Source: a candidate division TM6 bacterium GW2011_GWF2_37_49 (lineage in GTDB: Bacteria > Babelota > Babeliae > Babelales > RVW-14). Taken from it: a stretch of 64,000 nt of DNA. The stretch spans positions 21,003-85,002 of the forward strand of contig CAMATL010000001.1 of the NCBI GenBank assembly GCA_945861145.1. The letters are read 5' to 3'. Shown here in pieces: positions 14,992-56,785 of the stretch. Each line of letters begins with the position of its first letter. Positions within the stretch are counted from its first letter, which is position 1. The position numbers and the translations under genes are program-made. Below the pieces are notes generated by a model, which was not told the origin of the DNA, made no database searches, and saw only the letters and a program-made list of their open reading frames with translations.

Positions 14992-15015
14992 AATTTTTTA
15001 GGAAAAAGGAATTTA

Positions 15016-23758: not shown

Positions 23759-24073
23759 GTGAAAAGTGACCATATGCCTACTTCCTTAGTCGCCTCTGCC
23801 TTAGGGGGCATTACCATCGGCCTCTTGTATGCATACCTTCTAAAAAGACAAACTAAGTCTTTATTTGAGGGCCTTTCTGGGCAGCCTGGTGGTGGCAATA
23901 AGATGACAGCGATACTCAAACATCTTTTTTTCCTTATGAGCCGCTTTATAATCATCATAGGCCTTATTCTTGCACTTAAATTCACCGGCTATGTAGACTT
24001 ACAAGTGTGCTGTATTTTTGTAGTTTGCGGCTTCCTGATGAGCCTCTTTATTTACACCAAAAGGATGTTATGA
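23759..24073 (+). CDS. Small membrane protein in the AtpI/AtpZ position upstream of atpB
   Basis: Three to four hydrophobic helices. Its stop overlaps the atpB ATG (ATGA at 24070..24073). An alternative start is the ATG at 23774. Confidence 0.5.
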   Translation: MKSDHMPTSLVASALGGITIGLLYAYLLKRQTKSLFEGLSGQPGGGNKMTAILKHLFFLMSRFIIIIGLILALKFTGYVDLQVCCIFVVCGFLMSLFIYTKRML

Positions 24074-24911: not shown

Positions 24912-25862
24912 ATGATAAATGCTCAAATTATTCACTACAGTGCTGCGTTTATTACTCTCACGCTAGCGGCACTTGGCGGCGGCGTAGGACAGGGCATTGC
25001 AAGCCTTGCTACAATTGATGCAATTCAACGTCAACCTTGCAGTTATCAACAAAATTTTCGAACCCTCGTTATCGGCCTAGCTCTTATTGAAAGCGGGATA
25101 ATTATAGCGCTGGTTTCAACATTAATGATTATTTTTAGCTCACAGCCGCTCACGATTGGCATAGCCTGCGGGGAGCTTGGCATTGCTGCGGCAATTGGTC
25201 TAGCCGGAGGAGCGGTAAGTATTGCCTCAAGTTTTGTGGTTAAAGCAGCAACTGAAGGCATCGGTAGGCAACCATTTTTTGCTGCAAAAATAACTACCGT
25301 CATGTTGCTAGCACAGTCAATAATGGAAGCCCCACTGATTATTGCATTCATTGTTTCATTGCTCATACGCAATCGCATCAATGCAAACCCTGAGCTTTTA
25401 TACGGACTGCAAGGACTAGCAGCTGGGCTCACTATCGGACTTGGAAGCGTGGGACCATCGATTGGACAGGCAATTTTTACTCAAGCAGCCTGCAAAAGCA
25501 TTAGTGTAAACAAAAACGCTTATAACAAAATTTTTCCATTTATGTTGCTACTTGAAGCGATTATTGAAACGCCTTTTATGTTCTGCCTGCTCATTGCATC
25601 TATGATTTTATTTCGCCCTCTTGATGGCGCAATCTTAAGTGACGCCTTGATTCTTGGAGCTGCAGCTTTTGCAATCAGTATGGGATCTCTCGGAACAGCG
25701 ACCGGCATTGGTTTTACGGCATCAAAAAGCGTCATCAGCCTCGCCCAAAACCCAGACCAATATTCCCTACTCCTAAGAACTACACTGCTCGTGGCGGCCT
25801 TTATTGAATCAGCAATTATCTATGCAATGATTGTTGCGATCATGTTAATCATGGAAGTGTAA
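24912..25862 (+). CDS. atpE: F-type c subunit, four hairpins fused into one 316-aa polypeptide
   Basis: Four consecutive units of about 79 aa each. Each unit has a Gly-rich helix, a polar loop (RQP, RQP, degenerate, QNP) and a helix-2 Glu: E60 (25089..25091), E139, E219, E299. RBS aaggaa. Confidence 0.8.
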   Translation: MINAQIIHYSAAFITLTLAALGGGVGQGIASLATIDAIQRQPCSYQQNFRTLVIGLALIESGIIIALVSTLMIIFSSQPLTIGIACGELGIAAAIGLAGGAVSIASSFVVKAATEGIGRQPFFAAKITTVMLLAQSIMEAPLIIAFIVSLLIRNRINANPELLYGLQGLAAGLTIGLGSVGPSIGQAIFTQAACKSISVNKNAYNKIFPFMLLLEAIIETPFMFCLLIASMILFRPLDGAILSDALILGAAAFAISMGSLGTATGIGFTASKSVISLAQNPDQYSLLLRTTLLVAAFIESAIIYAMIVAIMLIMEV

Positions 25863-39614: not shown

Positions 39615-40361
39615 ATGATAGAAATTATAGGCTTAAAAAAATCATTCGGGTCCAAAGCAGTCACTAAGGATCTGTCGCTCCAAGTTAACACGGGCGAATT
39701 TTTAGCCATTATTGGGCGTTCGGGTGAGGGCAAATCGGTACTGCTAAAACAGATTGTCGGCCTGATTAATTCTGATGGTGGCGACATTATTATTAATGGC
39801 TCGCATCTTTCAGCCCTGCACGGCAAAGACCGTCAAAAAATATTCAAAGAATGCGGTTACGTTTTTCAATTTGCCGCACTGCTTGATTCTATCTCGGTAT
39901 TTGAAAACATCGCCCTCTACCATTTAGAAAACGGCATCAGCGCCAAAGAGATGCGTCCGCTTGTAGTCGAGAAAGTTAAAAGTGTTGGTTTAAGCCTCGA
40001 TGTGCTTGATAAATTTCCTGATGAACTTTCTGGTGGCATGAAAAAACGCGTTGGCCTAGCACGTACGCTCATGATGACCCCCAAAATTTTGATCTATGAT
40101 GAACCAACCACAGGGCTCGATCCTATCACGACGCGGTTGATTCATGAGCTGATGAAAGACACGCACATTAAATTTAACACCACAACTATTGTCATCTCGC
40201 ATGATATCGAGATCTTCAAATATGCCTCACACGTGGCGATGCTTCACGAAGGCAAAATCATATTCAAAGGCGAAGCATCAACTATCTGGGAAAGCACTGA
40301 CCCATACATTTATCAATTTATTCGCGGTTTAGCTGAGGGCCCAATCCAACATGGCACCTAA
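39615..40361 (+). CDS. mlaF: MlaF-like ABC transporter ATP-binding protein
   Basis: Walker A GRSGEGKS, signature LSGGMKKRVGLARTL, Walker B ILIYDEPTTGLD. Confidence 0.8.
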   Translation: MIEIIGLKKSFGSKAVTKDLSLQVNTGEFLAIIGRSGEGKSVLLKQIVGLINSDGGDIIINGSHLSALHGKDRQKIFKECGYVFQFAALLDSISVFENIALYHLENGISAKEMRPLVVEKVKSVGLSLDVLDKFPDELSGGMKKRVGLARTLMMTPKILIYDEPTTGLDPITTRLIHELMKDTHIKFNTTTIVISHDIEIFKYASHVAMLHEGKIIFKGEASTIWESTDPYIYQFIRGLAEGPIQHGT

Positions 40362-41790
40362 CATCACACCTACTTCAAAACCGATAATCTTAGTCGTAGA
40401 CGATGAGCAAGCTATTCTCACCGCAATGGCAAATATTTTGCAAGATGATGGCCATGTCGTGGAAACCACCACCAAGCCTGAGCTTGTTTTAGATTTGATC
40501 GGCACCTTGGTACCAGACCTGGTTTTTTTGGATATCTTTATCCCCAATGCTAACGGGATTGACCTACTCGCTTTAATTAAAAAAGAATATCCGAATCAAA
40601 AAGTTATAATCATGTCCGGTTATGGCAACGTGTCGCTCGCTGTTGATGCACTCAAAAAAGGGGCTCTCGATTTTGTTGAAAAACCATTCTCAATCGACGA
40701 CATTTTAAATAAAATTTCCCAATACTGCCCAACACATGACAATCAATACCAATTATCAGCCACAGCCCCACAGCATGCCGATCTAGTTGGTGAAAGCTAT
40801 TTATTTAAAGAGCTAGTTAATTACATCGACCGGATTGTCCCCCTCGATAATCATGTACTCATGTATGGGCCGCGCGGCATTGGCAAAACACATCTCGCTC
40901 GCTACATGCATGCACAAAAACATGATGGCAAAATTTTTCCAAATCAGGATGGATCCCGGGGCCCCCTGTCCTTCGGACTGGCACGGGATGACAGGGGAGG
41001 ATTGCATTCTGAATTTTGTCATCCCGGGCCCGATGAAGCCATAGGCGTAATCAGGGGGCCCCGCGATCCAGAGCTAAATCAAAGCAAGCTTACCGAAATA
41101 AGTGGCTTGCAAAATCCAACCCTAGCTATCGACCAATCACTCTTCAATCAAGAGGGTTCGATTATTATTAAACAGGTTGAGTCACTGACCAGCGCAGCAC
41201 AAAAAAAATTGCTCGCGCTACTTGAAGCGCCAACAACCAAGGCACGTGTATTTTGCCTGACACACAAAAATCTTTTTGGGCTCACAACCCAAGGACACTT
41301 CAACGAAGATTTATTCTACAGCCTCAATTCAACACCAATAGAGATCCCATCATTAAATAAACGCCGCTTTGATATCCCATTACTCGTGCATCATTACCTG
41401 ACAGCAATCAATAAAGAGTCAGGATCGTCATACACATTGTCCACAGAGGCTATTCGATTTTTACGCAACCATACCTGGCACGAGCACTGCCGCGAACTAC
41501 AACAACTACTTATTGCTGTAACCGTCGATATAAAATCCTCTGACCAAATTATTACACCAACTCATCTTCAACCATTTTTACATGAAGCCGACCATCACCT
41601 TATTGAAGAGCAACGCTTCCGCGGCTTTTCTTCATTACATGAAGCCACTCTTTCGTTTCAAAAAAAATTTTTACTGTACCAGCTGAAAAAAAATCGCTAC
41701 GATCTTGAACAGGTCTCGGACGTCCTAAGCATGGGTGTCGTAGATTTGCGCAATGAATTACAGCGGTTAAATATTTTACTAAGCTTGTAA
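40351..41790 (+). CDS. Response regulator with a REC domain, a degenerate NtrC-type AAA+ domain and a Fis-type HTH
   Basis: The REC domain reads ILVVDDEQ...DLVFLDIFIPNANGIDLL...IIMSGYG...KPF. The AAA+ domain has LVGES...MYGPRGIGKTHLARYMH but no GAFTGA loop. The C-terminal HTH reads YDLEQVSDVLSMGVVDLRNELQRL. It carries an in-frame repeat insertion. Confidence 0.65.
   Translation: MAPNITPTSKPIILVVDDEQAILTAMANILQDDGHVVETTTKPELVLDLIGTLVPDLVFLDIFIPNANGIDLLALIKKEYPNQKVIIMSGYGNVSLAVDALKKGALDFVEKPFSIDDILNKISQYCPTHDNQYQLSATAPQHADLVGESYLFKELVNYIDRIVPLDNHVLMYGPRGIGKTHLARYMHAQKHDGKIFPNQDGSRGPLSFGLARDDRGGLHSEFCHPGPDEAIGVIRGPRDPELNQSKLTEISGLQNPTLAIDQSLFNQEGSIIIKQVESLTSAAQKKLLALLEAPTTKARVFCLTHKNLFGLTTQGHFNEDLFYSLNSTPIEIPSLNKRRFDIPLLVHHYLTAINKESGSSYTLSTEAIRFLRNHTWHEHCRELQQLLIAVTVDIKSSDQIITPTHLQPFLHEADHHLIEEQRFRGFSSLHEATLSFQKKFLLYQLKKNRYDLEQVSDVLSMGVVDLRNELQRLNILLSL
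40952..41069. repeat. GC-rich palindromic element inserted in frame in the response-regulator gene
   Basis: gatcccggggcc...cgggatgacagg (40953..40994) faces ttgtcatcccgggcc...ggggccccgcgatcc (41017..41069). The terminal motifs match the element at 53411..53552. It is translated as DGSRGPLSFGLARDDRGGLHSEFCHPGPDEAIGVIRGPRDP. Confidence 0.65.
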
Positions 41791-41824: not shown

Positions 41825-42811
41825 ATGGAAAAAACTGCGTCGCCAGAAATTTTGGAACAAATTAAAGACAAAAGCACGCAATGGCAGTCACTACGCCAAG
41901 AAGTTAAAAAAGTTATCGTCGGTCAAGATTATGTAGTCGACCGTATCTTGATAGCTTTGCTTTGCAACCAACATGTCTTACTTGAAGGGGTCCCCGGCCT
42001 TGCTAAAACTACCTTGATCAAAACGGTAGCCCAAGCAATCGGCGTTGATTTTAGACGAATCCAATTCACACCCGACCTCCTGCCTGCCGATTTAATAGGC
42101 ACGCTCATCTACAATCCAAAGACGCAAGAATTTCAAACAAAAAAAGGCCCGCTATTTGCTAATATTATTTTGGCAGATGAAATCAACCGCGCCCCGGCAA
42201 AAGTACAATCTGCTTTACTCGAGGCCATGCAAGAGCATCAAGTCACGATTAGTGAAACTACCTTCAAGCTTGATGAGCCATTCCTTGTGCTCGCCACTCA
42301 GAACCCAATTGAGCAAGAAGGCACCTACCGCTTACCTGAAGCACAAATTGATCGCTTTATGTTTAAACTGATTGTCACCTATCCAAACATCACCGAAGAA
42401 AAAGAGATTTTAAAACGAGCGTTTGAGCGCAACTCAGTTCATCAGGTATTGAGCAAGGCTGAAATTCATGCATCCCAAAGCCTTATCGAACAAATTTATC
42501 TCGATGAAAAAGTAGTCGACTATATTTTACAGATCGTTTTTGCAACACGAAATCCACAAGATTTTGGCTTGAACGACATCAAACATCTCATCGAACATGG
42601 CGCTTCGCCTCGCGCAACACTGGCAATATATCATGCAGCAAAGGGCCATGCGTTTTTACGCAAACGCCACTTCGTTACACCAGACGATGTTAAGGCGGTT
42701 CTTCCTGATATTTTGCGCCATCGTATTTTACTCACGTACGAAGCAGAAGCCGAAAATATAACATCTGATCAGGTTATACAACAGATCCTTCGTACAATAC
42801 CTGCTCCATAA
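41825..42811 (+). CDS. MoxR-family AAA+ ATPase
   Basis: VLLEGVPGLAKTTLIKTVA, RIQFTPDLLPADLIG, ILADEINRAPAKVQSALLEAMQE. Confidence 0.85.
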   Translation: MEKTASPEILEQIKDKSTQWQSLRQEVKKVIVGQDYVVDRILIALLCNQHVLLEGVPGLAKTTLIKTVAQAIGVDFRRIQFTPDLLPADLIGTLIYNPKTQEFQTKKGPLFANIILADEINRAPAKVQSALLEAMQEHQVTISETTFKLDEPFLVLATQNPIEQEGTYRLPEAQIDRFMFKLIVTYPNITEEKEILKRAFERNSVHQVLSKAEIHASQSLIEQIYLDEKVVDYILQIVFATRNPQDFGLNDIKHLIEHGASPRATLAIYHAAKGHAFLRKRHFVTPDDVKAVLPDILRHRILLTYEAEAENITSDQVIQQILRTIPAP

Positions 42812-42901
42812 GGGGATCATACGTGAACGACTCGACATTTTGCTTGACAGCAAAAAATGATTGCCGGTATCTTCGTATTTTAAACGAGGATTAATGCGGG
42901 T

Positions 42902-44032
42902 ATGAAGCAAGCGTTGTGGGTCGTTAATAGTTCGATCATCGGACTTTTTGTTCTTTCTATGGCGATGCTGCAGGTGTTACACAAGGAACCACCGCATATT
43001 GCCAAGCTAGTTATTACTGAGCAACAACTAGCTAAAAAGAAGCACGTGTTTCCTCCGGCTCACTGGGAACCAATATTTAAACACGACCTGTTTGGTACCT
43101 ATGTGCCACAGGCATCCAAGGTGACACCAAAAAGCCTTGTCACTAACGCCCCAGAGCCAAAAGAATCTAGCCCTGAACCGATTCCAGAAGCTAAAAAACC
43201 TGAATTTGTTCCTGAGCTTGTGCTGAGCATTAAAGGTATTATTATTGCTGCCGACGAAACGCACAATGTCGCCATGATTGAAGACGAAGCCAAAAAAGAA
43301 GGTGTTTATCATATCGGCGACCTGTACAAAGATGGGCAGATTATTAAAATCTCTCGCAACAGCGTTGTCTTCTTACGCTCCAGCGGCCAACAAGAATCAT
43401 TTTACTTACGCAAGGAAGATGCTGACCTCGCAATGGATGGTCCAGCGAAGTGGGAATATATCATCAAAAAAACTGCTGAGACAGCTTGGCAGGTTGATCC
43501 AGAAAGCTTTAAACGTGAAATTGATTCATTGGGCGCGTTCATTGATCGTACCAGTATTATTGGTACCGCTTATCAACAAGGCAATGCAGTTGGCCTGCGT
43601 GTCGGTGAGCTGACACCAGATTCACTAGGAAGTCTCCTTGGCCTTAAAAAAGGTGATATTCTGTTATCAGTTAATGACCTAAGTGTTGCTCAAGCACGCA
43701 ATCGCGTTACTATTTTTGATAAAGTCTGCGCAAGCGCTGTTGACGATGTTATCATAGTGAAACTAAAACGTGAGGAAGCAGAGGTAACGCATACCTATAA
43801 GCTCTCCTACATAAGCAAAGCGAAAAAAATGATGTTCTCTGACGGTAAGGCTAAGGATGAGCCAAAACCTGATGAAGCGCTGAAAATGAGTAAGATGCAA
43901 GAACGCGACAAACAAGCGCGCGAATTTAGTGAACGACATGAAAACAACGGCCAACAAGATGCAATTGCACAAATTCGCAAACGTTTGTTAGAAAACCTGC
44001 GAGCACGCCTCCAGGGGGCACGAGCACGATAA
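42902..44032 (+). CDS. GspC-like protein (TM anchor, secretin-interacting HR region, PDZ domain)
   Basis: TM helix ALWVVNSSIIGLFVLSMAML. The HR-like region reads LSIKGIIIAADETHNVAMIEDEAKKEGVYHIGDLYKDGQIIKISRNSVVFL. The PDZ-like region reads GLRVGELTPDSLGSLLGLKKGDILLSVND. Confidence 0.65.
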   Translation: MKQALWVVNSSIIGLFVLSMAMLQVLHKEPPHIAKLVITEQQLAKKKHVFPPAHWEPIFKHDLFGTYVPQASKVTPKSLVTNAPEPKESSPEPIPEAKKPEFVPELVLSIKGIIIAADETHNVAMIEDEAKKEGVYHIGDLYKDGQIIKISRNSVVFLRSSGQQESFYLRKEDADLAMDGPAKWEYIIKKTAETAWQVDPESFKREIDSLGAFIDRTSIIGTAYQQGNAVGLRVGELTPDSLGSLLGLKKGDILLSVNDLSVAQARNRVTIFDKVCASAVDDVIIVKLKREEAEVTHTYKLSYISKAKKMMFSDGKAKDEPKPDEALKMSKMQERDKQAREFSERHENNGQQDAIAQIRKRLLENLRARLQGARAR

Positions 44033-44047
44033 AGATAGGATAGTGGG

Positions 44048-47000
44048 ATGGTGTTGTACGCATTTTTATTTTTGATTAGCTTGCTGGCTGCGTTCACGCA
44101 GCCTCTTTTTGCTATGCCTGGCGAAGAGCCGGTGATCACTAATGAAGAACAACAGCTTCCAACAATCAACCCCCTCCTTGCATCTGTAAAGCCCTCATCG
44201 CAAGCTGTAATAATGCCTGACAATAATCCGGTCATCGAAGAAGAAGATGATGCCATGGCGAATCTCATCAAAACAGCGCCATCAAGTGCAGACTCAAGCA
44301 AGGCTGATAAAAAAGATAAAAAATCTGCCGGCAAAGAATCCAAGCCCGCTGAAGAAAAAGAGCGTAATGATATTTACCTGAATTTTGAAAACAGCTCATT
44401 GGCTAACGTGGTCAATTACATGGCCGAGCTGCGCAACATTAATTTATTGCCTGACAAGGCACTGGCCGACATCAAAGTATCACTCACGATTCGTGAGCCA
44501 CTCACCGTAGACGGCGCATGGAATATTTTCCTTACGCTGCTTGAAGTATCAGGCTTTAGCATCGTTGAAGTTGGCGGTCTGCACAAAGTTATGCCCAAAG
44601 ATAAAAAAATGACCGAAGCCCTACCAATCTTCATCAATGTGCCGTACACAACATTGCCAGATAGTGATTTGACCGTGCGTTATGTTATGTTTTTGCAAAA
44701 CTTACAAATCGATTCCGTCAAAGATCTACTCGACAGTTTATTGAGCGACAAGCACACGTTGTTTCCGTATGCACAAGCAAACTGTTTTATTATTACTGAT
44801 CGCTGCTACAACATAAAATCAGCCATGAAGGTTATACATGAGCTCGATGCTATGGGCCAACCAGAAACGGTTGTGGTCATGCGTCTGAAGCGTACCAACG
44901 CCACCGATGTCAAAGGACTTATTGAAGGCTTGATGAGTAAAAAACAGGATAACAACCCACTTGCACGCTTCTTTGCCAAACCCGTTGATAGCACCACTGA
45001 ATATTTCCCAAGCGGGACAAAAATCGTAGCGGAAGATCGCACCAACCAGCTCATTTTAATGGGCAGTCCTGGCCCTATTGAAAAAATTAAAGATTTTATC
45101 ATGGCTCACATTGACGTTGATCTCAAAGCGGCAGAATCACCGCTACACATTTATGAACTACAGTATTCCGACGCCACAGCGATAGCAGAAATTTTAACCG
45201 CAGTGACAGCGCCCCCTGAAGGCGGTGCTGGCCAACAAGCTGCAAAATACGGTGCCATTCGCGGCGGCGTTAAATATTTTAAGCCAATGAAATTTATAGT
45301 CGACAAAGATGCCAATCGTCTCATTATTTCATGCACCGACAAGCAAGATTGGATTCTCCTGAAATCGATCATTAAAGATCTTGATAAGCCACAACCACAA
45401 GTCGCTATCGAAACTTTATATGTTTCAATTGATGAAAACGACATCAAACAAATGGGCGGCTCTATCCGCAATAAAAAAGAGGGCCAACTCGGCAAGGGTG
45501 TTGATTTTCAGGCAGCATCGCTGGGCACCGCCTCTCTTAGTACAGGGACTGACAAAAATCCTGTTACGCTGCTTGGTAGTATGCTTGGACAGCTTATTAC
45601 AGATAAAGGATCTACCCTTCTTACATTCGGCCAAGCCTCAAATATATGGGCTGTATTTGAAATGCTTAAATCACGAACCAATGCATCAATAATCTCACAA
45701 CCATTTATAACTGTGGCAAATAAAGTTGCTGGTAAAATTACGGTAGGTAGCGAGAACAACGTTGTTACAGAAGATTCAGGGGGTACAGGGCCAAAAGGTT
45801 ATGGCACGGTTACAGCAGATACCTCATTAGAAGTAGAGCCACAAATCAATTTGGATGGTGTTATTCGCTTAAAAATAACTGTTAATATTAGCGAATTTAC
45901 TGACCCAACAGTCGGAAATAAATCTGTAAATCATTTATCAACAAATATCAGCATGGCTGATGGTCAGGTTTTGGTACTTGGCGGCTTTATGCAAACCAAA
46001 GTTTCAGAAAACACAAATAAAACACCACTGTTAGCTGATATTCCAATTTTTGGCTGGTTTTTTAAAAATCAAAAGCGAACCATCGGTCGTAAATATATTT
46101 TCATTTTTATGGCACCAACTATCGTCAAACCGCGCTCTACGCCGGGTGTAGAATTGTACTCAAAGATGAAGCTGCACGAGGCTACTAACGATATTGAAAG
46201 CGGTATAAAAACAGTGAAAACACATGATCCGCTCTTAAATTGGTTTTTTGATCCTAAGGGTGAAAATTACTCCCATAAGGTTGTCGATTTTGCCAATGCT
46301 CGTTACCAACCAACTACCGTAGATATCAAGCACGATACCTACTATCGAGCCAATTCTAGTGAAGATGAAAAAAATCAGTCATTCAGTCAGCCTGTCACAA
46401 CCCATGCACCAACTATGATTGCAGCAGATAACATTGGCGAACCAGCTATTCAGTCGCCTAGTATTGAAATACAAGCAAGCACCCCTGTAATTGCAGAACC
46501 TGCAAGTAGCCAGATTATTGGCGATACCATAAGCACGCCACTTGCTTCAGCGATGATCCCATCAGATAGCGTCATGACCAATCCTACCCTAAGCACGCCG
46601 GTCATCGTTCCAAAAAATACTGTTATGACTAACCCTACATCAAAGACTACCCCAACCATCACACCGCTAGCATCGTTACCTCAATTAGCGCCAAAGATTG
46701 CATCAAGTAAACCTTTTTCCGCAAAGAAGCCTGATGCTGCCAATATTAAAGCGGTTATGGATAAACGATTGGGCCTTACAGAAAAAGAGCCTGCGCAACC
46801 ACGTAGTAAACTTGTTGAGCTAGCACAGGAGACCAACCAAGACGAGATATTTGAGACTGGTGCTCCAATGACTAAATCACCAAAATTCTCATCACAACAA
46901 GAACCAATCATTGAAACAAATTACGTAGAGCCGCACCCTGCCAAGCAAGACGTACTTAATCTTTTAGGTGAACGCATACAACAACAACGACATATCAGTG

Positions 47001-47263
47001 TCGACAGCGAACAACTCGTCAATCAACGCAAAAAACTTAAATCTTTAATCTCACAATCGTTTAGCGGCACAAGCAATAACAATGTAATCAATCCTCCAGC
47101 AAATGAAAAACAGGTGGCGCTTAAAGCATTACTTGCTTTACCAGACGCCCCAACGCGTAATCAACGGCAATTAGTTGTCGATCCTGTTAAGCGCAACTCT
47201 TTAAAAGATTTTCTTTCACAAGCTGAGCAACCAGCCCCAACGACAAGGAATAACCCTGCATGA
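44048..47263 (+). CDS. Secretin (GspD/PilQ family) 1, with a 303-aa low-complexity C-terminal tail
   Basis: Signal peptide and N0 region IYLNFENSSLANVVNYMAELRNINLL. The secretin core reads GQVLVLGGFMQTKVSENTNKTPLLADIPIFGWFFKNQ. An ATGA overlap links it to the next gene. Confidence 0.85.
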   Translation: MVLYAFLFLISLLAAFTQPLFAMPGEEPVITNEEQQLPTINPLLASVKPSSQAVIMPDNNPVIEEEDDAMANLIKTAPSSADSSKADKKDKKSAGKESKPAEEKERNDIYLNFENSSLANVVNYMAELRNINLLPDKALADIKVSLTIREPLTVDGAWNIFLTLLEVSGFSIVEVGGLHKVMPKDKKMTEALPIFINVPYTTLPDSDLTVRYVMFLQNLQIDSVKDLLDSLLSDKHTLFPYAQANCFIITDRCYNIKSAMKVIHELDAMGQPETVVVMRLKRTNATDVKGLIEGLMSKKQDNNPLARFFAKPVDSTTEYFPSGTKIVAEDRTNQLILMGSPGPIEKIKDFIMAHIDVDLKAAESPLHIYELQYSDATAIAEILTAVTAPPEGGAGQQAAKYGAIRGGVKYFKPMKFIVDKDANRLIISCTDKQDWILLKSIIKDLDKPQPQVAIETLYVSIDENDIKQMGGSIRNKKEGQLGKGVDFQAASLGTASLSTGTDKNPVTLLGSMLGQLITDKGSTLLTFGQASNIWAVFEMLKSRTNASIISQPFITVANKVAGKITVGSENNVVTEDSGGTGPKGYGTVTADTSLEVEPQINLDGVIRLKITVNISEFTDPTVGNKSVNHLSTNISMADGQVLVLGGFMQTKVSENTNKTPLLADIPIFGWFFKNQKRTIGRKYIFIFMAPTIVKPRSTPGVELYSKMKLHEATNDIESGIKTVKTHDPLLNWFFDPKGENYSHKVVDFANARYQPTTVDIKHDTYYRANSSEDEKNQSFSQPVTTHAPTMIAADNIGEPAIQSPSIEIQASTPVIAEPASSQIIGDTISTPLASAMIPSDSVMTNPTLSTPVIVPKNTVMTNPTSKTTPTITPLASLPQLAPKIASSKPFSAKKPDAANIKAVMDKRLGLTEKEPAQPRSKLVELAQETNQDEIFETGAPMTKSPKFSSQQEPIIETNYVEPHPAKQDVLNLLGERIQQQRHISVDSEQLVNQRKKLKSLISQSFSGTSNNNVINPPANEKQVALKALLALPDAPTRNQRQLVVDPVKRNSLKDFLSQAEQPAPTTRNNPA

Positions 47264-48969
47264 TGATGCGCAATATCCTTCTACCTGAAAAAATTGGTAC
47301 GCGCCGCCTCTTTGCTCTACGCGTGTTGAGCATTATGATCCAGGAAGATTCAGTCCGGGGTAGCATTGTTTTGTTAAAACCAAATGCTGCAGTCGTTCAA
47401 AAACTACTTGATTTTCCGTTTGGACAAAGCAGTAATAACGCTCCCGTCCGCAGCCTGCAAGAAGCCTTAACGGCTCTCATCGCCGCTGCTGGCAAGATAG
47501 ATGATATTCGTGTCGTTATTCCGGCTACTATGACAATTATCAAAGAGCTTGAAGTTCCTTTTGTCGATAGTGAAAAAATTCGCATGGTTATTGGCTATGA
47601 AATCGAGCCACTCCTACCATTTTCACTCGAAGAAGCCATCGTCGATTTTATTGTTACCAAGAGCAACAAAGACCTCCTGAGTTCTCAAATTCTCGTGGTA
47701 GCCATTCGCAAGCAAGATCTTGCCGCCATCCTTGAGCCGTATGAGCAAAATGGTATTAAAGTTAAAACCGTCATCATCGATCTTTTTGCAACGTATGGTT
47801 TATACCAAAAAATTTCCACGTATCATGATCTGCCAGGAAGCACAGCGCTTGTGGATGTTGGCTTACAAGGTACGCGAATTACCTTTTTGCAAAACAACCA
47901 GCTTAAGCTAACACGCTATATCACTAAGGGATTGAATTTCATTCTCAATCACATCAGTGAAGAAATAGGCGCAAGCAAAGAAGAGGTATTAAAACACCTC
48001 CAAGAGGATGGCATCAATGCACTTGATACCCAAAGCATGCTTGAAAAAACAATGCAAAAACATCTCATTAATTTTTTTAATGAGATTCAATTTACCCTCA
48101 ATTCATTCAGTCTTAAGCTGAACTATTATGAAGGCGTCAGCAAAATTTTATTTGTGGGTAGCGTTGCAAATATTCCTCATCTTATGGAATTTAGCACAGA
48201 GCTTTTGCAGATACCTTGCGAGCTTTTTAACCCTCAAAAAATCTTTGAGGGCAAAGGCATCAAAAATAACACCCCCGTATCAACAACTGGCTGGGAGCTA
48301 TTTGTTAACCCTTTGGGCGCTACGCTTGGTCCAATAGAATTTGAAAATTTTAATCTACGCAGGCATGAATTTGCGCTTTTTGACATTGAGCTAGGCTTGC
48401 AACAATTATTTACTGGTTGCTTTCTTCTTCTACTCACCTTTGGTGTCATAGGGTTTATGGGATACTCACAAATCAGCGAACTGCGCAGCACTACACAGGC
48501 GCTAGAGGCCGATCAAGCCGATAGGCTACGCGCACTACTCGCCCGCAAAGATCGTGCGCGCACAATGAGCCTGCAAGCTCTTTTTCGTAAGATTGAAGAC
48601 TTGGTAAAAGAGAAAAAATCTCTTTGGGAGCCTTTTGGGCAAGCACGTATCAAACCGCTTGAGCTGTTGCTTGAAGTAACCCAAACCTTTGATAAGAAGC
48701 AATTTAAGCTCGATGTTGAAGAATTTAACTTAAGTGAAAAAGAACCTGGCAATCCAATTATTGAACTCTCAGGTTATTTTAAATCAGATCTTGGGATGGG
48801 ATCCAATTTCAGAGAGTGGATGCAACTTGAGGACCGTATCAAGGAGTCACCGCTACTCACTCTTGTAGAACCGCCTTCGACTATTCCAGCAGCAGAAAAA
48901 GGCATTAAATTTGATGTTAAATTACAAAAAAAATCTTTCCGCGATGATGCGCAATCGGTGAATCAATAA
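47260..48969 (+). CDS. GspL-like / PilM-PilN fusion-like assembly protein
   Basis: The cytoplasmic actin-like part has ALVDVGLQGTRITFLQNNQLKLTRYITKG. A single TM helix (FTGCFLLLLTFGVIGFMGY) is followed by a coiled coil and a periplasmic domain of about 160 aa. Confidence 0.6.
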   Translation: MMMRNILLPEKIGTRRLFALRVLSIMIQEDSVRGSIVLLKPNAAVVQKLLDFPFGQSSNNAPVRSLQEALTALIAAAGKIDDIRVVIPATMTIIKELEVPFVDSEKIRMVIGYEIEPLLPFSLEEAIVDFIVTKSNKDLLSSQILVVAIRKQDLAAILEPYEQNGIKVKTVIIDLFATYGLYQKISTYHDLPGSTALVDVGLQGTRITFLQNNQLKLTRYITKGLNFILNHISEEIGASKEEVLKHLQEDGINALDTQSMLEKTMQKHLINFFNEIQFTLNSFSLKLNYYEGVSKILFVGSVANIPHLMEFSTELLQIPCELFNPQKIFEGKGIKNNTPVSTTGWELFVNPLGATLGPIEFENFNLRRHEFALFDIELGLQQLFTGCFLLLLTFGVIGFMGYSQISELRSTTQALEADQADRLRALLARKDRARTMSLQALFRKIEDLVKEKKSLWEPFGQARIKPLELLLEVTQTFDKKQFKLDVEEFNLSEKEPGNPIIELSGYFKSDLGMGSNFREWMQLEDRIKESPLLTLVEPPSTIPAAEKGIKFDVKLQKKSFRDDAQSVNQ

Positions 48970-49529
48970 TGAATTTAAACATAAAAACACATTGCATTGA
49001 AGCCTTGAGGTATCTGCATGGGCTTGAAAAAGCCGAGTTTGAAAAATACCTATTCATCGGCCTGGCTAGCTTTGGGCTCCTGATCGGGACCAGCGTTTAT
49101 CTTGTTTATAGCACCTGTAATAACCTCCACCAGGAAATTACTAATTTACAAAATTTGAAAAAAAAGACGCGTAAATTATTACTTGATTTTGGCAGTATTG
49201 ATGCCGAAGAAACACGCATCAACGCAATCCTCGAGCAGCATAAAAGCTTTGATCTCAAGATTTATTTTGAATTATTCTGCAAAGAGCAAGGCGTTGCCGC
49301 AGCACCAGGCTGGAATGCATCAACCACCGTTATTAATCCACAGGTTGACGAAATATCGCTCACGGCAACTTTTAAGAGCCTGACTACCGAAAACCTTGTA
49401 CGCATGCTACAAGAATTTGATAAAACAGAGGTCGTGTATCTAAAAAATATTCGGATCAAAACAGACAAAGACAAAAAAATTACCTGTGAAGTCACACTGG
49501 CTACCATTCAAAAAAAAGCACAGGGGTAG
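48969..49529 (+). CDS. GspM/PilO-like bitopic protein
   Basis: 186 aa with one TM helix (FIGLASFGLLIGTSVYLVY), then a coiled coil and a small domain. A TAATG overlap links it to the upstream gene. The call rests on position and architecture only. Confidence 0.4.
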   Translation: MNLNIKTHCIEALRYLHGLEKAEFEKYLFIGLASFGLLIGTSVYLVYSTCNNLHQEITNLQNLKKKTRKLLLDFGSIDAEETRINAILEQHKSFDLKIYFELFCKEQGVAAAPGWNASTTVINPQVDEISLTATFKSLTTENLVRMLQEFDKTEVVYLKNIRIKTDKDKKITCEVTLATIQKKAQG

Positions 49530-49538
49530 GTTTATATT

Positions 49539-52256
49539 ATGATAAATAAATTGTGGTTATGGATTACAGGACCGCTCCTATCCTACCGCTCGAGACCCTT
49601 CGAGACAGCCCTATCGGGCTTCCTCAGGGCGAGCGGAGTCAGCAAGTTAATTCAATCTGCTTTGATGGGCCTTGCCAGTATTGAGAATTGTCATTCTAAA
49701 TTCAGAGCTCTCTTCTTAACCGCTCGCCCTGATATTTTTTCGACCGGCTCAGCAGCAAAAAAACCCGCTCGCCTTGAGCTTGTCGAAAGGTCTCGAGCGG
49801 ATTTCAAAGGGTTTCGAGCGGCCAAAACTCTTAAAATAGCCTTTTTATCTTTATTTATTGCCACCACCTCCCTGCACGCAGAAGAGCCAAACGTCAGCGT
49901 CATGTTTAATCCTGCCACAGGCTCCATACAAGCGATCAATGCGGATGAAAGCTCCCCAATAACTACCCAAGAGCAAGCGCTTGCCCTAGCCCAAGAGCCA
50001 ATGATAGACATTGCGCCACCGCTATCAGGTGCATCTAATAAAAAACCCGCAGCGCCATCTACCACTAAGGCCGCCACTACTACTCCCTCTAAAGGAATCG
50101 ATGATGGCGAAGCAAATGTGTACCTTAATTTTGAAAACGTAAGCCTTAACAGTGTTGTTAACTATTTGGCTGAACGTAAAAAAATTAACCTTGTCCCGCA
50201 CAAAGATTTAGAGGCTCAAAAAGTATCGCTCAGCACACGCAAGCCACTCACACTAAATCGCGCTTGGGATATCCTACTCACCCTTCTCGAGATGAATGGT
50301 TTTAGCATCGTGCAAGTCAACAATTTGCATCGCATCGTTGCAAATAAAGATAATGGCGTTGAGCCATTGCCGTACTACACCTCTCAGATAACAGCACCCG
50401 AAGATTTGCCAGACAGTGATCTAGTAGTGCGCTACATGTATTTTTTCAAAAATATAAAACCTGAAATCGCTCAAGATATTTTAAAAACAATGCTCGATGG
50501 TGATAAGAGCGTGCAGCCAATTAAAGACCTGCAAGCTGTTATTATTAAAGAAAAGTGTCACAACATCAAGGCTGCCTTACGGGTTATTAAAGAGCTTGAT
50601 ACTGGTGGCCTACGTCAATCCATCCGCATAGTCCCGCTCAAAGAAGCTGATGCTGAAACCGTACAAAAGCTTTTTCAAGACATTTTGGGTGGCGGCGAAG
50701 GCGGCGATGATCGTTTAAAATTTATAGCGGCTGATAGCCCTGCAGAATCGGCCTATTTTTCTTCAACAACAAAAATTATTCCCGATTCAAGTAAAAACTC
50801 ATTAATTCTTTTGGGTACACCAGCCAACATCGATAAGATTTGTAATTTTATTTATAAATATATCGATGTACCAATTGGTACCGCCAATTCACGTATTCAT
50901 ATTAGAGAGCTGCGCTACGCTAAAGCAGAAGCATTAAAGCCACTACTTGAAAGTATTATCAAACCACCAAGTGGCCAAGGTAGTGATAAGAGTAGTATTG
51001 TCGGGCAATTCAAATTTTTTGAAGATGTAATTATTGCGGCAGACGCCGCTGGTGGCGATGAAAATAGAGGCGCAGGCAACCGACTGATTATTTCAGCCAA
51101 TCAAGGCGACTGGGTACGCTTAAATAGCTTTATTGATAAACTCGACAAACCAGCACCGCAGGTCGCTTTTGAAGTAATGATAGTAGATATTACCCTACGC
51201 ATGGATAAAGAACTTGGCGCTCAACTACAAAGCCAAGGCATGGTCGGCGCTGGGCTTAACCGCGTGAATTTTAATAATATCTTTGCGCTTCCAAGCGGCA
51301 CAGAAGGGAAAGAAACCTATACACCAGACAACCCTACCATCCCTGCTTATAAATTCACTGATATCATAAATAAAATAGGATCTGGTTCGTTTTTAACACT
51401 TGGCGCTCCAGGGGTGGGCGAGGCCAATAAAATGTGGGCTTTTATCCGCAGTTATTTTAATACAAATAATAGCCATATTGTTTCTCAGCCTTACTTAATT
51501 ACTAATAATTTTCAAGAATGCCATATTGCGGTTGGAAGTACGGAGCGCGTTCCTGGCCCATTAATCACTGAAAAAGGTGAGGCTAAAACACAACAAAAAG
51601 TAGAGAGATCGGCCAATACTGACGTTAAATTAACACCACAAATTAACTATGATGGTGTCGTTACACTTAAAATTGATATGTCGATAAATGAATTTGTACC
51701 CGGCTCCCCAGAGAGCGGCTCAAATATGGCCAAGCGAACCATAGCAACAAAAGTAAACATGGCTGCTGGCGAGGTGCTAGTGCTTGGTGGTATGGCAAAA
51801 AGCAATCTCAATTTAAGCACTTATAAAACCCCAATCCTTGGCGATATACCAATCCTTGGCAACCTCTTTCGCAGTACAGTCAAAATAAAGGATGAAGTAA
51901 ATCTGTATGTCTTTATTCGCCCAAGCGTCATCAAGCCAAGCTTTGAAGGCGCGCCAGATGAATACACACAACTCAAGCTCGATTATGCAAAATATCAAAT
52001 GATCAAGACCGACAATTATTCTAGAGAGTATGACCCTGTGCATCGCTGGTTCTTCAAGCCAACAAACCATTCAATCAAAAACACACTCGCCGATGCGCGT
52101 AATGGGGTATTTAGACCTGTGGATGACTTCACGTATGGTAAAGGCCAGCCGAAGACTGTGGATATAAAATCCGATCCATACTACCAAGCCACAGTCAATG
52201 TTGAAGCTGCTAAGAAATTGAAGAAGTTAAAATCGCGCAAGAAAAAACAGGCGTAG
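49539..52256 (+). CDS. Secretin (GspD/PilQ family) 2, with a repeat-derived N-terminal extension
   Basis: N0 region VYLNFENVSLNSVVNYLAERKKINLV and secretin core GEVLVLGGMAKSNLNLSTYKTPILGDIPILGNLFRS. The signal-like h-region KTLKIAFLSLFIATTSLHA begins only at about residue 97. Confidence 0.8.
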   Translation: MINKLWLWITGPLLSYRSRPFETALSGFLRASGVSKLIQSALMGLASIENCHSKFRALFLTARPDIFSTGSAAKKPARLELVERSRADFKGFRAAKTLKIAFLSLFIATTSLHAEEPNVSVMFNPATGSIQAINADESSPITTQEQALALAQEPMIDIAPPLSGASNKKPAAPSTTKAATTTPSKGIDDGEANVYLNFENVSLNSVVNYLAERKKINLVPHKDLEAQKVSLSTRKPLTLNRAWDILLTLLEMNGFSIVQVNNLHRIVANKDNGVEPLPYYTSQITAPEDLPDSDLVVRYMYFFKNIKPEIAQDILKTMLDGDKSVQPIKDLQAVIIKEKCHNIKAALRVIKELDTGGLRQSIRIVPLKEADAETVQKLFQDILGGGEGGDDRLKFIAADSPAESAYFSSTTKIIPDSSKNSLILLGTPANIDKICNFIYKYIDVPIGTANSRIHIRELRYAKAEALKPLLESIIKPPSGQGSDKSSIVGQFKFFEDVIIAADAAGGDENRGAGNRLIISANQGDWVRLNSFIDKLDKPAPQVAFEVMIVDITLRMDKELGAQLQSQGMVGAGLNRVNFNNIFALPSGTEGKETYTPDNPTIPAYKFTDIINKIGSGSFLTLGAPGVGEANKMWAFIRSYFNTNNSHIVSQPYLITNNFQECHIAVGSTERVPGPLITEKGEAKTQQKVERSANTDVKLTPQINYDGVVTLKIDMSINEFVPGSPESGSNMAKRTIATKVNMAAGEVLVLGGMAKSNLNLSTYKTPILGDIPILGNLFRSTVKIKDEVNLYVFIRPSVIKPSFEGAPDEYTQLKLDYAKYQMIKTDNYSREYDPVHRWFFKPTNHSIKNTLADARNGVFRPVDDFTYGKGQPKTVDIKSDPYYQATVNVEAAKKLKKLKSRKKKQA
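49571..49822. repeat. Composite GC-rich repeat (CCGCTCGAG / CCTTCGAGAC / GAGCGG family) inside the 5' end of the secretin 2 ORF
   Basis: ccgctcgagacccttcgagacagccctatcgggcttcctcagggcgagcgg matches 55831..55872. ccgctcgccttgagcttgtcgaaaggtctcgagcgg matches 56748..56785. The boundaries are approximate. Confidence 0.6.
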
Positions 52257-52262
52257 TAAAAA

Positions 52263-52583
52263 ATGGCGATGGAACGATCTCAAATTCAAAATCCAGCAAC
52301 AATAAAATATGTCGATATTATTGTTGCATGTGTAAAAAAACATCTCGGAGATTGTAAAATTTATTTATTTGGGTCGCGCGCTGAGAATAAAGATCGAGAA
52401 GGCTCTGATGTTGATATAGCTCTTGACCTCGATACAAAAATTAATTTCAAAACTATTGTTCAAATTAATGACGAATTAGTTATGTCAAAACTGCCCGTGT
52501 TTGTTGATATTATTGATATACATGAAGCATCCGCTGAACTTAGAGATCAGATTAAAAAACATGGAATTTTATGGAAAAGCTAA
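52263..52583 (+). CDS. Minimal nucleotidyltransferase (MNT-type antitoxin)
   Basis: LFGSRAENKDREGSDVDIALDL carries the G-S-x(n)-D-x-D motif. The gene overlaps the downstream HEPN start by 13 nt. Confidence 0.75.
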   Translation: MAMERSQIQNPATIKYVDIIVACVKKHLGDCKIYLFGSRAENKDREGSDVDIALDLDTKINFKTIVQINDELVMSKLPVFVDIIDIHEASAELRDQIKKHGILWKS

Positions 52584-53010
52584 TCCTAAAACAAACCATT
52601 CTCAATCAAGCCTTAGAGCAGCTTAAAACAGTAATTATTGATTATGAAAAAACAATATGCCCTTAGAGTTTGCACATGGAAAAGAATACCTTCGCGAAGC
52701 CATGATGCAGCGGTTTGAATACTCATGTGAATTATTTTGGCGATTCATAAAGGCTTATCTCGACTTCGCGCATGGAGCTGTTCCTGCCGAGAGTGGAGCG
52801 CGCAGCATTATTCGCGCAGCTTGTAAGATCGGTATTTTATCAGAGTCTGAAACAGGCATAATCATTGACATGATTGAAGATCGCAACAAAAGCTCACACA
52901 TGTACCTAGAATCTGTTGGATTGCAAATTGCAAAACACATTCCAATATACGCAGAGCTCATGCAAAAAATAACTTCTCGGATCATTTTAAAAGTTAGTTC
53001 CGCGAGGTAA
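52571..53010 (+). pseudogene. HEPN-domain protein (HI0074-like, toxin partner of MNT) interrupted by a frameshift at an A6 run
   Basis: Frame 2 from the ATG at 52571 gives MEKLILKQTILNQALEQLKTVIIDYEKTICP-stop (52664..52666). Frame 1 continues from 52648 with NNMPLEFAHG...MQRFEYSCELFW...EDRNKSSHMY (R-x4-H). The frames join at aaaaaa (52647..52652). One extra A would give a protein of about 146 aa. Confidence 0.6.
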
Positions 53011-53030
53011 AATCACGCATAAAACTAAAA

Positions 53031-53066
53031 AAGCGTGGGCTTGATTTCACAATCAAGCCCACGCTT
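53031..53066. terminator. Bidirectional hairpin terminator
   Basis: aagcgtgggcttgatt (53031..53046), loop tcac, aatcaagcccacgctt (53051..53066): a perfect 16-bp stem with an A-run upstream and a T-run downstream. Confidence 0.75.
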
Positions 53067-53085
53067 TTTATTTATTTTTTAAAAT

Positions 53086-53633: not shown

Positions 53634-54992
53634 TTATGCCTCCGTTACAGCAATGTAAGCATCGATAGCTTTTACTACACTGAGGTGCGACTTCTTATTT
53701 GCAAGAATTCGAGCGGTGTTACCTTCTTTATCTTTTGCTTCTACGTCAGCACCAACAGACAGTAAATATTCCACCGCCGCGAGGTTGCCGATGTCTGCCG
53801 CCGCGTGCAACGGCGTGCGACCTTTTTTATTTTTTGCCAAAACATCAGCACATGCGTCAAATAAAGCCTGCCATAGCAAAAACGTTCCGTTCACTGCCAC
53901 TGCTGCAGCATGTAACGGCGTATTGCCATCTTGATCAGCAATTTGAACATCAGCCCATTGAGCGATAAGGCTTTGCAAGGCAGCCACATTGCCAGCACCT
54001 GCAGCAAGATATGCCGCCGTAGCACCTTTCACTGTGATAGCATCTTTATCAGAACCAGCATTACACAAATACTGTTCTATGGACGCATATCCGTACAATG
54101 CCCCTTTGTGTAGCGGCGTAAATTGCATAGCATTGCGCGCATGTATATCACCGCCAGCGGCATGTAATGCCTTTAGGATTGCCAACCCACCGTTGCTCGC
54201 AGCAATATGCAAAGCAGTGTTACCATCAGAGTCTTTTGTGTTAACCTCTGCGCCAGCAATAAGCAAAGTCTCTAAAATTGCCAAGCTATCATTGCTCGCA
54301 GCAATATACAAAGCTACGCCATTATCAGATTTTTTTGTGTTTTTAGTACAAATTAAATCCTGCACTACAGATAAATGCTTATACATTGTCGCGTACTGCA
54401 GGGGGGTATATCCCTTTGCATCTTTTATATTGATATCAGCGCGCCCTAAACGTAACGCCTGCACAATCTCTAAATCCCCAAATGCTGCTGCTATGTGTAG
54501 CGGCGCTGTACCATCTTGATTGACGCTGTTCGCATGAGCCCGAACATCAACTAAGTATTGAACCACCGGCAAATGCCTGCTTTTTACCGCGTAATGCAAT
54601 ACCGTATACCCATCAGTGGTTTTTGCTTGTACGTTTGCTCTACCAGTGCGTAATGCTCTTACTATTGATAGATAACCACGACTCGCTGCCAGATGTAATG
54701 GCGTAACTTTATTTTTTGCGACAGCATGCACATTAGCTCCAGCCCCAATTAAGGCTTGCACAATCTCCAAATTACCATCATCAGAAGCTAGATGCAGGGG
54801 CGTAAAGCCATCCGCATCAGTAACGTTTAAGGCAACTTGATTAAATTCAGGATCAGCAAGCACCTCTCTCATGACTATTAAATCGCCGCGAGCATCTTGT
54901 AATTGTTCGGCAATTTGTTGCTTAGCGGTAGGCATAGCAAAAAGTAGAGAAGGCATTGCGCATATTAATATCATGACGCTAATTATTTTCAT
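53634..54992 (-). CDS. Secreted ankyrin-repeat protein (about 12 ANK repeats)
   Basis: Signal peptide MKIISVMILICAMPSLLFA. This is followed by tandem 33-aa repeats matching G-x-TPLH-x-AA-x-x-G-x-x-x-(I/V)V-x-x-L-x-x-x-GA-(D/N). Confidence 0.9.
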   Translation of the reverse strand: MKIISVMILICAMPSLLFAMPTAKQQIAEQLQDARGDLIVMREVLADPEFNQVALNVTDADGFTPLHLASDDGNLEIVQALIGAGANVHAVAKNKVTPLHLAASRGYLSIVRALRTGRANVQAKTTDGYTVLHYAVKSRHLPVVQYLVDVRAHANSVNQDGTAPLHIAAAFGDLEIVQALRLGRADINIKDAKGYTPLQYATMYKHLSVVQDLICTKNTKKSDNGVALYIAASNDSLAILETLLIAGAEVNTKDSDGNTALHIAASNGGLAILKALHAAGGDIHARNAMQFTPLHKGALYGYASIEQYLCNAGSDKDAITVKGATAAYLAAGAGNVAALQSLIAQWADVQIADQDGNTPLHAAAVAVNGTFLLWQALFDACADVLAKNKKGRTPLHAAADIGNLAAVEYLLSVGADVEAKDKEGNTARILANKKSHLSVVKAIDAYIAVTEA

Positions 54993-56711: not shown

Positions 56712-56747
56712 AAGCCCCCCTTTTTATTGAGCACAATTTACCACCAC

Positions 56748-56785
56748 CGCTCGAAGCCCTGAGCTTGTCGAAGGGTTTCGAGCGT
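56748..56785. repeat. Solo palindromic unit (CGCTCGAA...TTCGAGCG)
   Basis: ccgctcgaagccctgagcttgtcgaagggtttcgagcg is near-identical in design to 49766..49800. Confidence 0.5.

Follow-up and report, generated by a model that had tools for sequence, protein, structure and literature searches.

Why do bacteria of the phylum Dependentiae (candidate division TM6) keep two secretins? The presence of two copies of gspD, the secretin gene of the type II secretion system (T2SS), is not new: two copies were reported in all seven TM6 genomes, with pilQ absent, and the role of the second copy was called an open question (Yeoh 2015). Here we address this question using a 64,000-nucleotide (nt) stretch of contig CAMATL010000001.1 from candidate division TM6 bacterium GW2011_GWF2_37_49 (hereinafter, the window). 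Five genes at positions 42902–52256 of the window (g1 to g5) encode, in this order, a GspC-like protein, secretin A, a protein with the topology of GspL, a GspM/PilO-like protein and secretin B, an order on which profile searches and fold matches agree with the reading originally made from the sequence alone. The two secretins are genuine paralogs, purifying selection acts on both, and the gene cluster in which they reside is conserved in nearly every sampled lineage of the phylum. They originated by a single duplication that is older than the sampled diversity of Dependentiae. The most likely answer is that two outer-membrane channels share a single inner-membrane platform, with the motor genes located elsewhere in the genome.

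Components of the operon

The locus includes the following features (window coordinates).

42902–44032, plus strand: g1, GspC-like bitopic protein with an N-terminal transmembrane (TM) segment, HR domain, PDZ domain and charged C-terminal tail
44048–47263, plus strand: g2, secretin A, GspD-type, with a signal peptide, linker, N0–N3, secretin domain, S-domain-like helix followed by DPxxxWFF, and tail
47260–48969, plus strand: g3, predicted PilM-PilN fusion with GspL topology (Pfam PilM_2 and T2SSL; AlphaFold 2 model)
48969–49529, plus strand: g4, GspM/PilO-like bitopic protein (Pfam T2SSM matches in the family; fold)
49539–52256, plus strand: g5, secretin B, GspD-type (Pfam N0, Secretin_N and Secretin)
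41825–42811, plus strand: MoxR-type AAA+ ATPase (Pfam AAA_3 and AAA_lid_2), adjoining the cluster on its upstream side
40351–41790, upstream of MoxR: NtrC-like regulator with a receiver (REC) domain, degenerate AAA+ domain and C-terminal helix-turn-helix (HTH)
42844–42873, plus strand: candidate sigma-70-like promoter, TTGACA-18-TATCTT, in the 90-nt gap between moxR and g1 (consensus match only)
49540–49830 (approximate), no strand: palindromic insertion resembling repetitive extragenic palindromes (REP-like), separating g4 from the secretin B signal peptide, with the g5 open reading frame (ORF) kept open
53028–53069, no strand: strong bidirectional terminator-like hairpin with a 19-bp stem and T tracts on both strands

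The GspC-like protein matches Pfam T2SSC with 33.6 bits (cut-off, 27) and aligns with NCBIfam GspC_delta over positions 36–309 of 311 with 87 bits (cut-off, 150). Its match to PDZ_6 is weak (19.9 bits, under the cut-off), and its cytoplasmic part is a few residues long.

The g3 protein matches Pfam PilM_2 (74 bits) and T2SSL (28.7 bits; cut-off, 25.5). The AlphaFold 2 model (pLDDT 81) consists of a cytoplasmic actin-like domain (residues 1–360), a TM segment with a coiled coil (376–461) and a periplasmic ferredoxin-like domain with the alpha-beta-beta-alpha-beta-beta topology (466–557). Among the folds detected by Foldseek for the cytoplasmic part, PilM is the best (5eou, E 5e-22, TMt 0.73; TM range, 0.73–0.76), followed by FtsA; because the cytoplasmic domain of EpsL/GspL comes only at E 4e-10, the model identifies g3 as a PilM-PilN fusion with the topology of GspL. 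All 145 homologs of g3 are full-length, and every one that carries an organism name belongs to Dependentiae, Babeliales or TM6. The N-terminus of g3 (window 47260–47310) contains a conserved motif, IFLPEK, with P9 and R16 invariant. This motif is similar to the N-terminal peptide of E. coli HofN/PilN (INFLPWR), to which PilM binds in type IV pilus (T4P) systems, and might bind the PilM-like domain of g3 in cis.

The g4 protein of the window has no Pfam match, and a g4 profile run against the sequences in the PDB yields only coiled-coil and TM noise. Nevertheless, Pfam T2SSM matches 29 of the 49 members of the g4 family, with E values down to 1e-8, and the source names some of them PulM. The AlphaFold 2 model (pLDDT 77), in which a long TM/coiled-coil helix precedes a ferredoxin-like alpha-beta-beta-alpha-beta-beta domain, matches PilO (3jc8_O and 2rjz, TMt 0.62) and EpsM (1uv7, TMt 0.65) in Foldseek. 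As judged from the models, g3 and g4 are components of a T2SS/T4P assembly platform. Hence the outcome that the sequence-only reading had named as fatal to it, L- and M-like genes unrelated to T2SS and T4P, does not obtain.

Each of the two secretins contains the Pfam domains N0, Secretin_N and Secretin, and neither has a match to the AMIN domain in the Pfam scan. The TIGR02517 model of GspD aligns end to end with both (positions 1–592 of 600), at 273 bits for secretin A and 289 bits for secretin B. These scores are under the equivalog cut-off of 351, yet about twice those obtained with the PilQ model TIGR02515 (135 and 149 bits, respectively, against a cut-off of 284). The two proteins are colinear and 35% identical over 789 residues, an alignment that includes the N0 motif and the module downstream of the secretin domain, so that the sharing of these regions noticed from the sequence alone is borne out. 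The tails differ: secretin A of the window ends in a low-complexity tail of about 300 amino acids (aa), and among its orthologs the tail ranges from 11 to 296 aa, with the median length of 127 aa for A vs 43 aa for B.

In both paralogs, the helix that follows the secretin domain corresponds in the alignment to the S-domain region of GspD from E. coli and is itself followed by a motif present throughout the phylum, (R/K)DPIxRWFF; one major clade has an additional block after this motif, QPTTVDIKNDPYYR in A and a looser form in B. An exhaustive search of 1.84 billion representative proteins with a hidden Markov model profile of the C-terminal module produced just 126 matches. The full-length ones are proteins of 740–1200 aa, with the module near residue 640–990. 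Given that the profile library carries no taxonomy, the matches were assigned using BLAST against the Dependentiae secretins and outgroups, and 122 of the 124 tested are nearest to Dependentiae secretins (70 to A and 52 to B) rather than to the outgroups. A word-indexed search with the 74-aa module found two fragments only. By these searches, the C-terminal module appears to be specific to the Dependentiae secretin family; its position suggests a role similar to that of the S-domain.

Genes for the motor and the filament are missing from this neighborhood. The E. coli GspA-O, HofB/C/M-Q and PpdD sequences were used as queries against all ORFs of 50 aa or more, both in the window and in 62 related loci flanked by 10 kb; these loci come from species-representative genomes, were retrieved with the g3 profile, all belong to Dependentiae and include the complete genome of strain Noda2021. 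Searches of the window and of the cluster with 10 kb on either side in the 62 genomes detected no homolog of GspE/PilB, GspF/PilC, pseudopilins or prepilin peptidase. The E. coli Gsp and Hof queries returned only GspD/HofQ and weak GspC matches, and HofP, the query for PilP, had no match. Two 10-kb extensions of the contig (20 kb, for a total of about 84 kb) contain no motor or pilin genes either, and a scan for prepilin motifs, limited to the window and these extensions, gave no match. The absence of ATPase, platform and pilin genes that had been noticed in the window thus extends to its flanks and to relatives.

Compared with the classical T2SS of Proteobacteria (E. coli K-12 Gsp, Klebsiella Pul and Vibrio Eps, with the gene order gspC-D-E-F-G-H-I-J-K-L-M-O), the Dependentiae locus retains the order C-D...L-M, a GspC with HR and PDZ domains, a GspD-type secretin with N0–N3 and an S-domain-like helix at the C-terminus, and bitopic L and M proteins, L with an actin-like domain in the cytoplasm and M with a ferredoxin-like domain in the periplasm. 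Unlike the classical systems, it lacks E-K and O in all 62 genomes, contains a second secretin after M where one per system is the norm, is preceded by moxR, encodes an L protein with the full PilM-type fold in place of the reduced GspL fold, and shows the DPIxRWFF module specific to Dependentiae secretins; all scores are under the NCBIfam equivalog cut-offs. With the PilM-PilN-PilO-PilP-PilQ alignment subcomplex of type IVa pili (T4aP), the locus shares the PilM-like actin fold, a PilN-like TM segment and periplasmic domain, the PilO-like fold and the order M/N-O-secretin. In contrast to T4aP, PilM and PilN are fused, GspC with a PDZ domain takes the place of the PilP lipoprotein, and the secretins lack the AMIN domain and score far better with the GspD model than with the PilQ model. 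The third relevant comparison is with the pilus-like cluster Amuc_1098-Amuc_1101 of Akkermansia. The Amuc_1100 structures 6lad and 6kny are among the matches of the g4 model, the best NCBIfam match of g3 is the Amuc_1101 PilM-like family (608 positions; 85 against a cut-off of 650), and a C-terminal stretch of both secretins matches the Amuc_1098 model (39–49 against a cut-off of 750). To our knowledge, Akkermansia lacks GspC and a second secretin. Altogether, the system is T2SS-like with features of the T4aP alignment complex, and departs from each in several of the traits by which these systems are recognized.

Origin and retention of the secretin pair

Comparison of the window proteins with the ORFs of the 62 loci using BLAST reveals the order tpiA-secG-mlaE-mlaF-(ntrC-like)-moxR-gspC-secretin A-L-M-secretin B in nearly every locus with sufficient flanking sequence. 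This synteny persists down to 26% identity of g3, and the gspC-like gene is syntenic in all loci. In the relatives, the gene 3' of secretin B is usually on the opposite strand, which places the end of the operon at secretin B. Almost all lineages have two paralogous secretins in the operon, and neither copy is absent in any lineage in which the respective position is covered.

The phylogenetic and synteny comparisons that the sequence-only reading had proposed support old paralogy. In the neighbor-joining tree built from an L-INS-i alignment, the Dependentiae secretins are monophyletic with respect to seven proteobacterial secretins (three GspD/EtpD, two PilQ/HofQ, one CpaC and one other), with 100/100 support. 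The position-A secretins cluster with 56% support and the position-B secretins with 73%, and four subclades have 100% each. A separate duplication within each subclade was rejected, with a bootstrap support of 1–10%. The tree is that of a single duplication that appears to antedate the sampled diversity of the phylum.

Selection acts on both copies. The dN/dS values against the sister species are 0.12 (secretin A) and 0.14 (secretin B), indicating purifying selection on both, compared with 0.12 for tpiA and 0.07–0.11 for g1, g3 and g4.

The five genes are co-oriented in the ORF list of the window, with overlaps of 4 nt between g2 and g3 (47260–47263) and 1 nt between g3 and g4 (48969), and gaps of 15 nt between g1 and g2 and 9 nt between g4 and g5. 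The tight coupling originally read from these distances stands for the overlaps and the 15-nt gap, and fails for the 9-nt gap, which is an ORF running through a strain-specific REP-like insertion and not a genuine start spacing. Bases from about 49540 to 49830 hold inverted and direct copies of the palindrome CCGCTCGAGACCCTTCGA, with inverted repeats at 49586–49603 vs 49783–49800 and 49804–49821. In a strain variant (L002/L004; conspecific, with proteins otherwise identical to those of the window) and in the sister species (L072/L073), the spacer between g4 and secretin B is unrelated to that of the window, from the stop codon of g4 to the conserved cleavage region ...HAEEPNVSV, and secretin B starts with the normal signal peptides MLKKTSLHLFGLALFTLFFINATSLHA and MIKRCLFILFIGITMLIPSTHA (MLKKTSLHLF... 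and MIKRCLFILF...), 230–290 nt after g4. In the window strain, the hydrophobic h-region of the signal peptide is at about 49830–49880 and the mature protein begins at about 49881 (EEPNVSV...); canonical in-frame start codons are limited to ATG 49539 and ATG 49665, and there is no ATG, GTG or TTG near the hydrophobic core. The 9-nt gap was therefore rejected as evidence of coupling in this strain, in view of the insertion and the starts of the relatives. In about 40 other lineages, secretin B has an ordinary signal peptide and starts at −4 to +56 nt after g4, so that tight coupling of g4 and secretin B is ancestral.

A few assemblies contain split secretin ORFs. In the Noda2021 genome (L057, AP025250.1), which was assembled from PacBio RS II reads only, secretin A is split in two ORFs at a T6 homopolymer (8741–8750). 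This split more likely reflects a sequencing error than a pseudogene and was rejected as proof that secretin A is dispensable, given the T6 run in a PacBio-only assembly. Other splits occur in metagenome-assembled genomes with MFD names (L058 and L066), which we take to be long-read assemblies.

A proposed pair of channels on one platform and the alternatives

How could two secretins be used with one set of partners? We propose that the locus encodes the envelope-spanning, non-motor half of a type II secretion or type IV filament machine of Dependentiae. The HR domain of the GspC-like inner-membrane protein would dock the N0 domains of the secretins, whereas the GspL-type PilM-PilN fusion and its GspM/PilO-like partner would constitute the inner-membrane assembly platform. 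The ATPases, platform proteins, pseudopilins and prepilin peptidase would be encoded elsewhere, scattered in the genome. Most likely, two separate outer-membrane channels would be produced simultaneously from the same operon and use one GspC-L-M platform in common; each would work with a PulE/PilB-PulF motor module of its own, two such modules being known from published Dependentiae genomes. One channel would export Sec-delivered effectors, for example, ankyrin proteins with signal peptides, and the other one would serve either a pilus-like fiber, as suggested previously (Yeoh 2015), or a second set of substrates. The sharing of the platform, the pairing with motors and the substrates are what we infer beyond the observed genes, and as an explanation of the whole locus we regard this account as evenly poised between right and wrong.

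Published genomes provide the context for this proposal. The core gene set of TM6 includes components of the T2SS and possibly of T4P (Yeoh 2015), and the T2SS is predicted to be the only secretion system of Babela (Pagnier 2015). The counts of clusters of orthologous groups (COGs) for Babela/TM6SC1 are 3/2 for PulD, 2/2 for PulE-PilB, 2/2 for PulF, 3/0 for PulG and 1/1 for PilM (Pagnier 2015); two PulE/PilB, two PulF and two or three PulD next to one PilM favor two channels that share a platform. In Babela, PulF is a loner gene among unrelated genes. In Chromulinavorax, signal peptides are found in 44% of the coding sequences and in 78% of the ankyrin proteins (Deeg 2019), and the ankyrin gene beside the operon in the window also encodes a Sec signal peptide. 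Signal peptides on many Dependentiae proteins lend indirect support to a predicted export of folded periplasmic proteins across the outer membrane.

Several observations weigh against two separate channels. The two-motor count is taken from two other Dependentiae genomes (Babela and TM6SC1), not from that of the window, and COG2804 and COG1459 do not tell T2SS from T4P paralogs. No pili were seen on Babela (quoted in Yeoh 2015). The N0 domains of A and B are conserved to a similar degree, which fits docking to a shared GspC and, equally, a mixed ring. Furthermore, one locus (L056, JARLHJ010000034.1, 5684–16811) encodes four secretins, two tandem A copies before L and two tandem B copies after M (A1/A2 are 48% and B1/B2 50% identical), along with single gspC, L and M genes; such joint duplication of A and B hints at co-dependence of the two.

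Duplication of A and B to the same depth, with C, L and M remaining single, is what would be expected if the secretins formed an obligate pair within one apparatus, either as a hetero-oligomeric ring or as stacked or adjacent rings on one GspC-L-M platform. The presence of both in one operon in nearly every sampled lineage, with ancestrally tight coupling, the lack of any lineage with a covered position that is missing either copy, and the N0 and phylum-specific C-terminal DPIxRWFF module common to both point in the same direction. The secretins (pIV) of phages f1 and IKe can form mixed multimers; we know, however, of no natural heteromeric secretin. In addition, proteins with 35% identity and unlike tails would have to fit into one symmetric ring, and the paired PulE and PulF counts are more simply read as two machines. 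We consider an obligate pair unlikely, although worth keeping in view.

The two secretins could also be interchangeable channels of one machine, retained for redundancy or for specialization by substrate or life stage. The Xcp T2SS of Pseudomonas aeruginosa can use an alternative orphan secretin, XqhA, which is encoded apart and serves as a backup. There, as in Dependentiae, two paralogous secretins go with one inner-membrane machine, but here both are in one operon and universally kept. The full GspD architecture of both proteins, their equal scores with the GspD model and the single C/L/M set agree with this possibility, as does the 230–290-nt spacer that the subclade of the window gained before secretin B and that offers room for an internal promoter. 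Pure redundancy, however, would not maintain purifying selection on both copies across the phylum, and ancestral co-transcription speaks against stage-specific expression, so that interchangeability is doubtful.

A further possibility concerns moxR. As noted from the sequence alone, this gene is immediately upstream of the operon and has no VWA partner: the encoded protein matches Pfam AAA_3 (222 bits) and AAA_lid_2 (79 bits), and no VWA/DUF58 domain was found in the scanned ORFs of the window. MoxR might be a dedicated AAA+ factor for assembly of the secretins, analogous to the GspA/ExeA-GspB/ExeB pair. The gene is directly 5' of the gspC-like gene and co-oriented with it in all loci with sufficient upstream flank except for L033, L037 and L042, stays beside gspC in deep-branching genomes in which the genes of the mlaF-moxR interval vary, and is strongly constrained (dN/dS 0.03); the absence of a VWA partner nearby also sets it apart from the MoxR-VWA chaperone system, with which it shares the AAA_3 and lid domains. 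As in the GspA/GspB case, a gene for an AAA+ ATPase is adjacent to those of a GspC-like bitopic protein and a secretin. However, MoxR is a member of another AAA+ clade (AAA_3) and has neither a TM segment nor a peptidoglycan-binding domain, and our search revealed no similarity in sequence to GspA or GspB of E. coli. The three exceptional loci lack moxR at this position in otherwise intact clusters, a gap of 60–110 nt (90 nt in the window, with the promoter-like site) separates moxR from gspC, the cytoplasmic part of GspC would offer few residues for contact, and the housekeeping genes tpiA, secG and mlaEF are equally syntenic, which makes gene order weak evidence of a link. We know of no precedent for MoxR in a T2SS. 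A role in the secretion system, for which the case is one of synteny, is possible but unsupported, and a dedicated assembly factor seems improbable to us.

Even less probable is the far-reaching combination of these ideas, in which A and B would be obligate partners in a heteromeric channel, the first natural hetero-oligomeric secretin, aided by MoxR and serving as the only secretion machine of the phylum. Finally, that secretin B is a decaying or non-functional duplicate, as the start displaced by the repeat insertion in the window strain and the split ORFs of a few relatives might suggest, is rejected and, at the level of the family, refuted, leaving it barely any likelihood: secretin B is intact in the great majority of about 50 lineages (orthologs 27–58% identical), evolves under nearly the same constraint as secretin A, retains the h-region and cleavage site of the signal peptide in the window strain, and several of the splits come from the MFD-named or PacBio-only assemblies, that of Noda2021 at the T6 run.

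Surroundings of the operon and implications

The window is contained in a contig of 103.5 kb from a metagenome-assembled genome (ENA ERZ27280245, k141_2614184), and fragments of it are also present in GCA_947445965.1. The neighbors of the operon in the window are housekeeping genes: tpiA, secG, mlaE, an mlaF-like ABC ATPase, ribonucleotide reductase, BamA-like proteins, gltX and transfer-messenger RNA (tmRNA). The promoter candidate in the gap between moxR and g1 scores highest among the promoter-like sites of the region, with 10 of 12 positions matched, and the regional count of such sites equals the shuffle expectation. Rfam and tRNA scans gave no match inside the operon and, in the window as a whole, just the tmRNA gene (17172–17574, minus strand), which encodes the tag peptide ANLTNSGFSDFMRGSNAPSHVYAAA.

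The NtrC-like gene upstream of moxR is limited to one major clade. Its product was described as degenerate from the outset, and this assessment holds: it retains the REC domain, a Walker A motif (GPRGIGKT), the lid and the C-terminal HTH, IIIKQVE stands in the place of Walker B, and neither GAFTGA nor the acidic pair of Walker B is found in this protein or in a relative without the 50-aa insert. Lacking both, it is not a standard sigma-54 activator; this role was set aside for the missing GAFTGA only, no sigma-54 scan having been run. The insert itself is a 50-codon in-frame insertion at 40950–41075 that is absent from the sister species and flanked by the inverted repeat GGATCCCGGGGCCCCCTG...CAGGGGGCCCCGCGATCC. 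This small palindromic element, placed into a coding region with the frame left intact, recalls the palindromic elements of Rickettsia. The CCGCTCGAGACCCTTCGA palindromes make up a second family, apart from this element; a related copy is intergenic at 56745–56785, and contigs from other samples break exactly at the cluster of these palindromes in the spacer between g4 and secretin B.

Just 3' of the operon is a pair of genes for a nucleotidyltransferase (NTase) and an NTase-substrate-binding (HEPN-like) protein (52263–53010), and the hairpin at 53028–53069, located 3' of this inserted pair, ends the co-oriented block. The ankyrin gene (53634–54992) encodes a protein of 452 aa with a Sec signal peptide. 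The sister species L072/L073 lack both the pair and the ankyrin gene, which indicates that both were recently inserted.

Elsewhere in the window, the ORF of an ATP synthase c subunit (24912–25862, 316 aa) contains four Pfam ATP-synt_C stretches and looks like a fused multi-hairpin c subunit; the gene for the a subunit adjoins it (24007–24900). Four tandem ORFs at 8578–17085 (687, 661, 642 and 689 aa), located 3' of a gene for a 1201-aa MscS-domain protein, have no Pfam match; their like size and order suggest that they are paralogous. Two Omp85/POTRA (BamA-like) proteins are encoded at 89–2278 (837 aa in the full contig) and 27594–30488 (964 aa).

In the searchable literature, we found no description of the architecture of this operon, its synteny across the phylum or the single old duplication of the secretins, nor of the PilM-PilN fusion, the C-terminal module specific to these secretins or the adjacency of moxR. 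Described here for the first time are, thus, a fixed, phylum-wide envelope operon with two anciently diverged secretins and, along with it, an L protein of the PilM type, a lineage-specific C-terminal module of secretins and separately encoded motor genes. For studies on the evolution of such machines, the locus is a natural intermediate between the PilM/PilN of T4P and the GspL of the T2SS.

Amoebae and other protists are the hosts of Dependentiae, which are widespread obligate parasites. No secretion system of type III, IV or VI was found in published analyses of their genomes, so that a T2SS-like machine is the presumed route for hundreds of effectors with signal peptides, including ankyrin proteins. 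The question left open in 2015, on the two copies of gspD, now becomes one of testable alternatives: two channels on one platform, or a heteromeric secretin.

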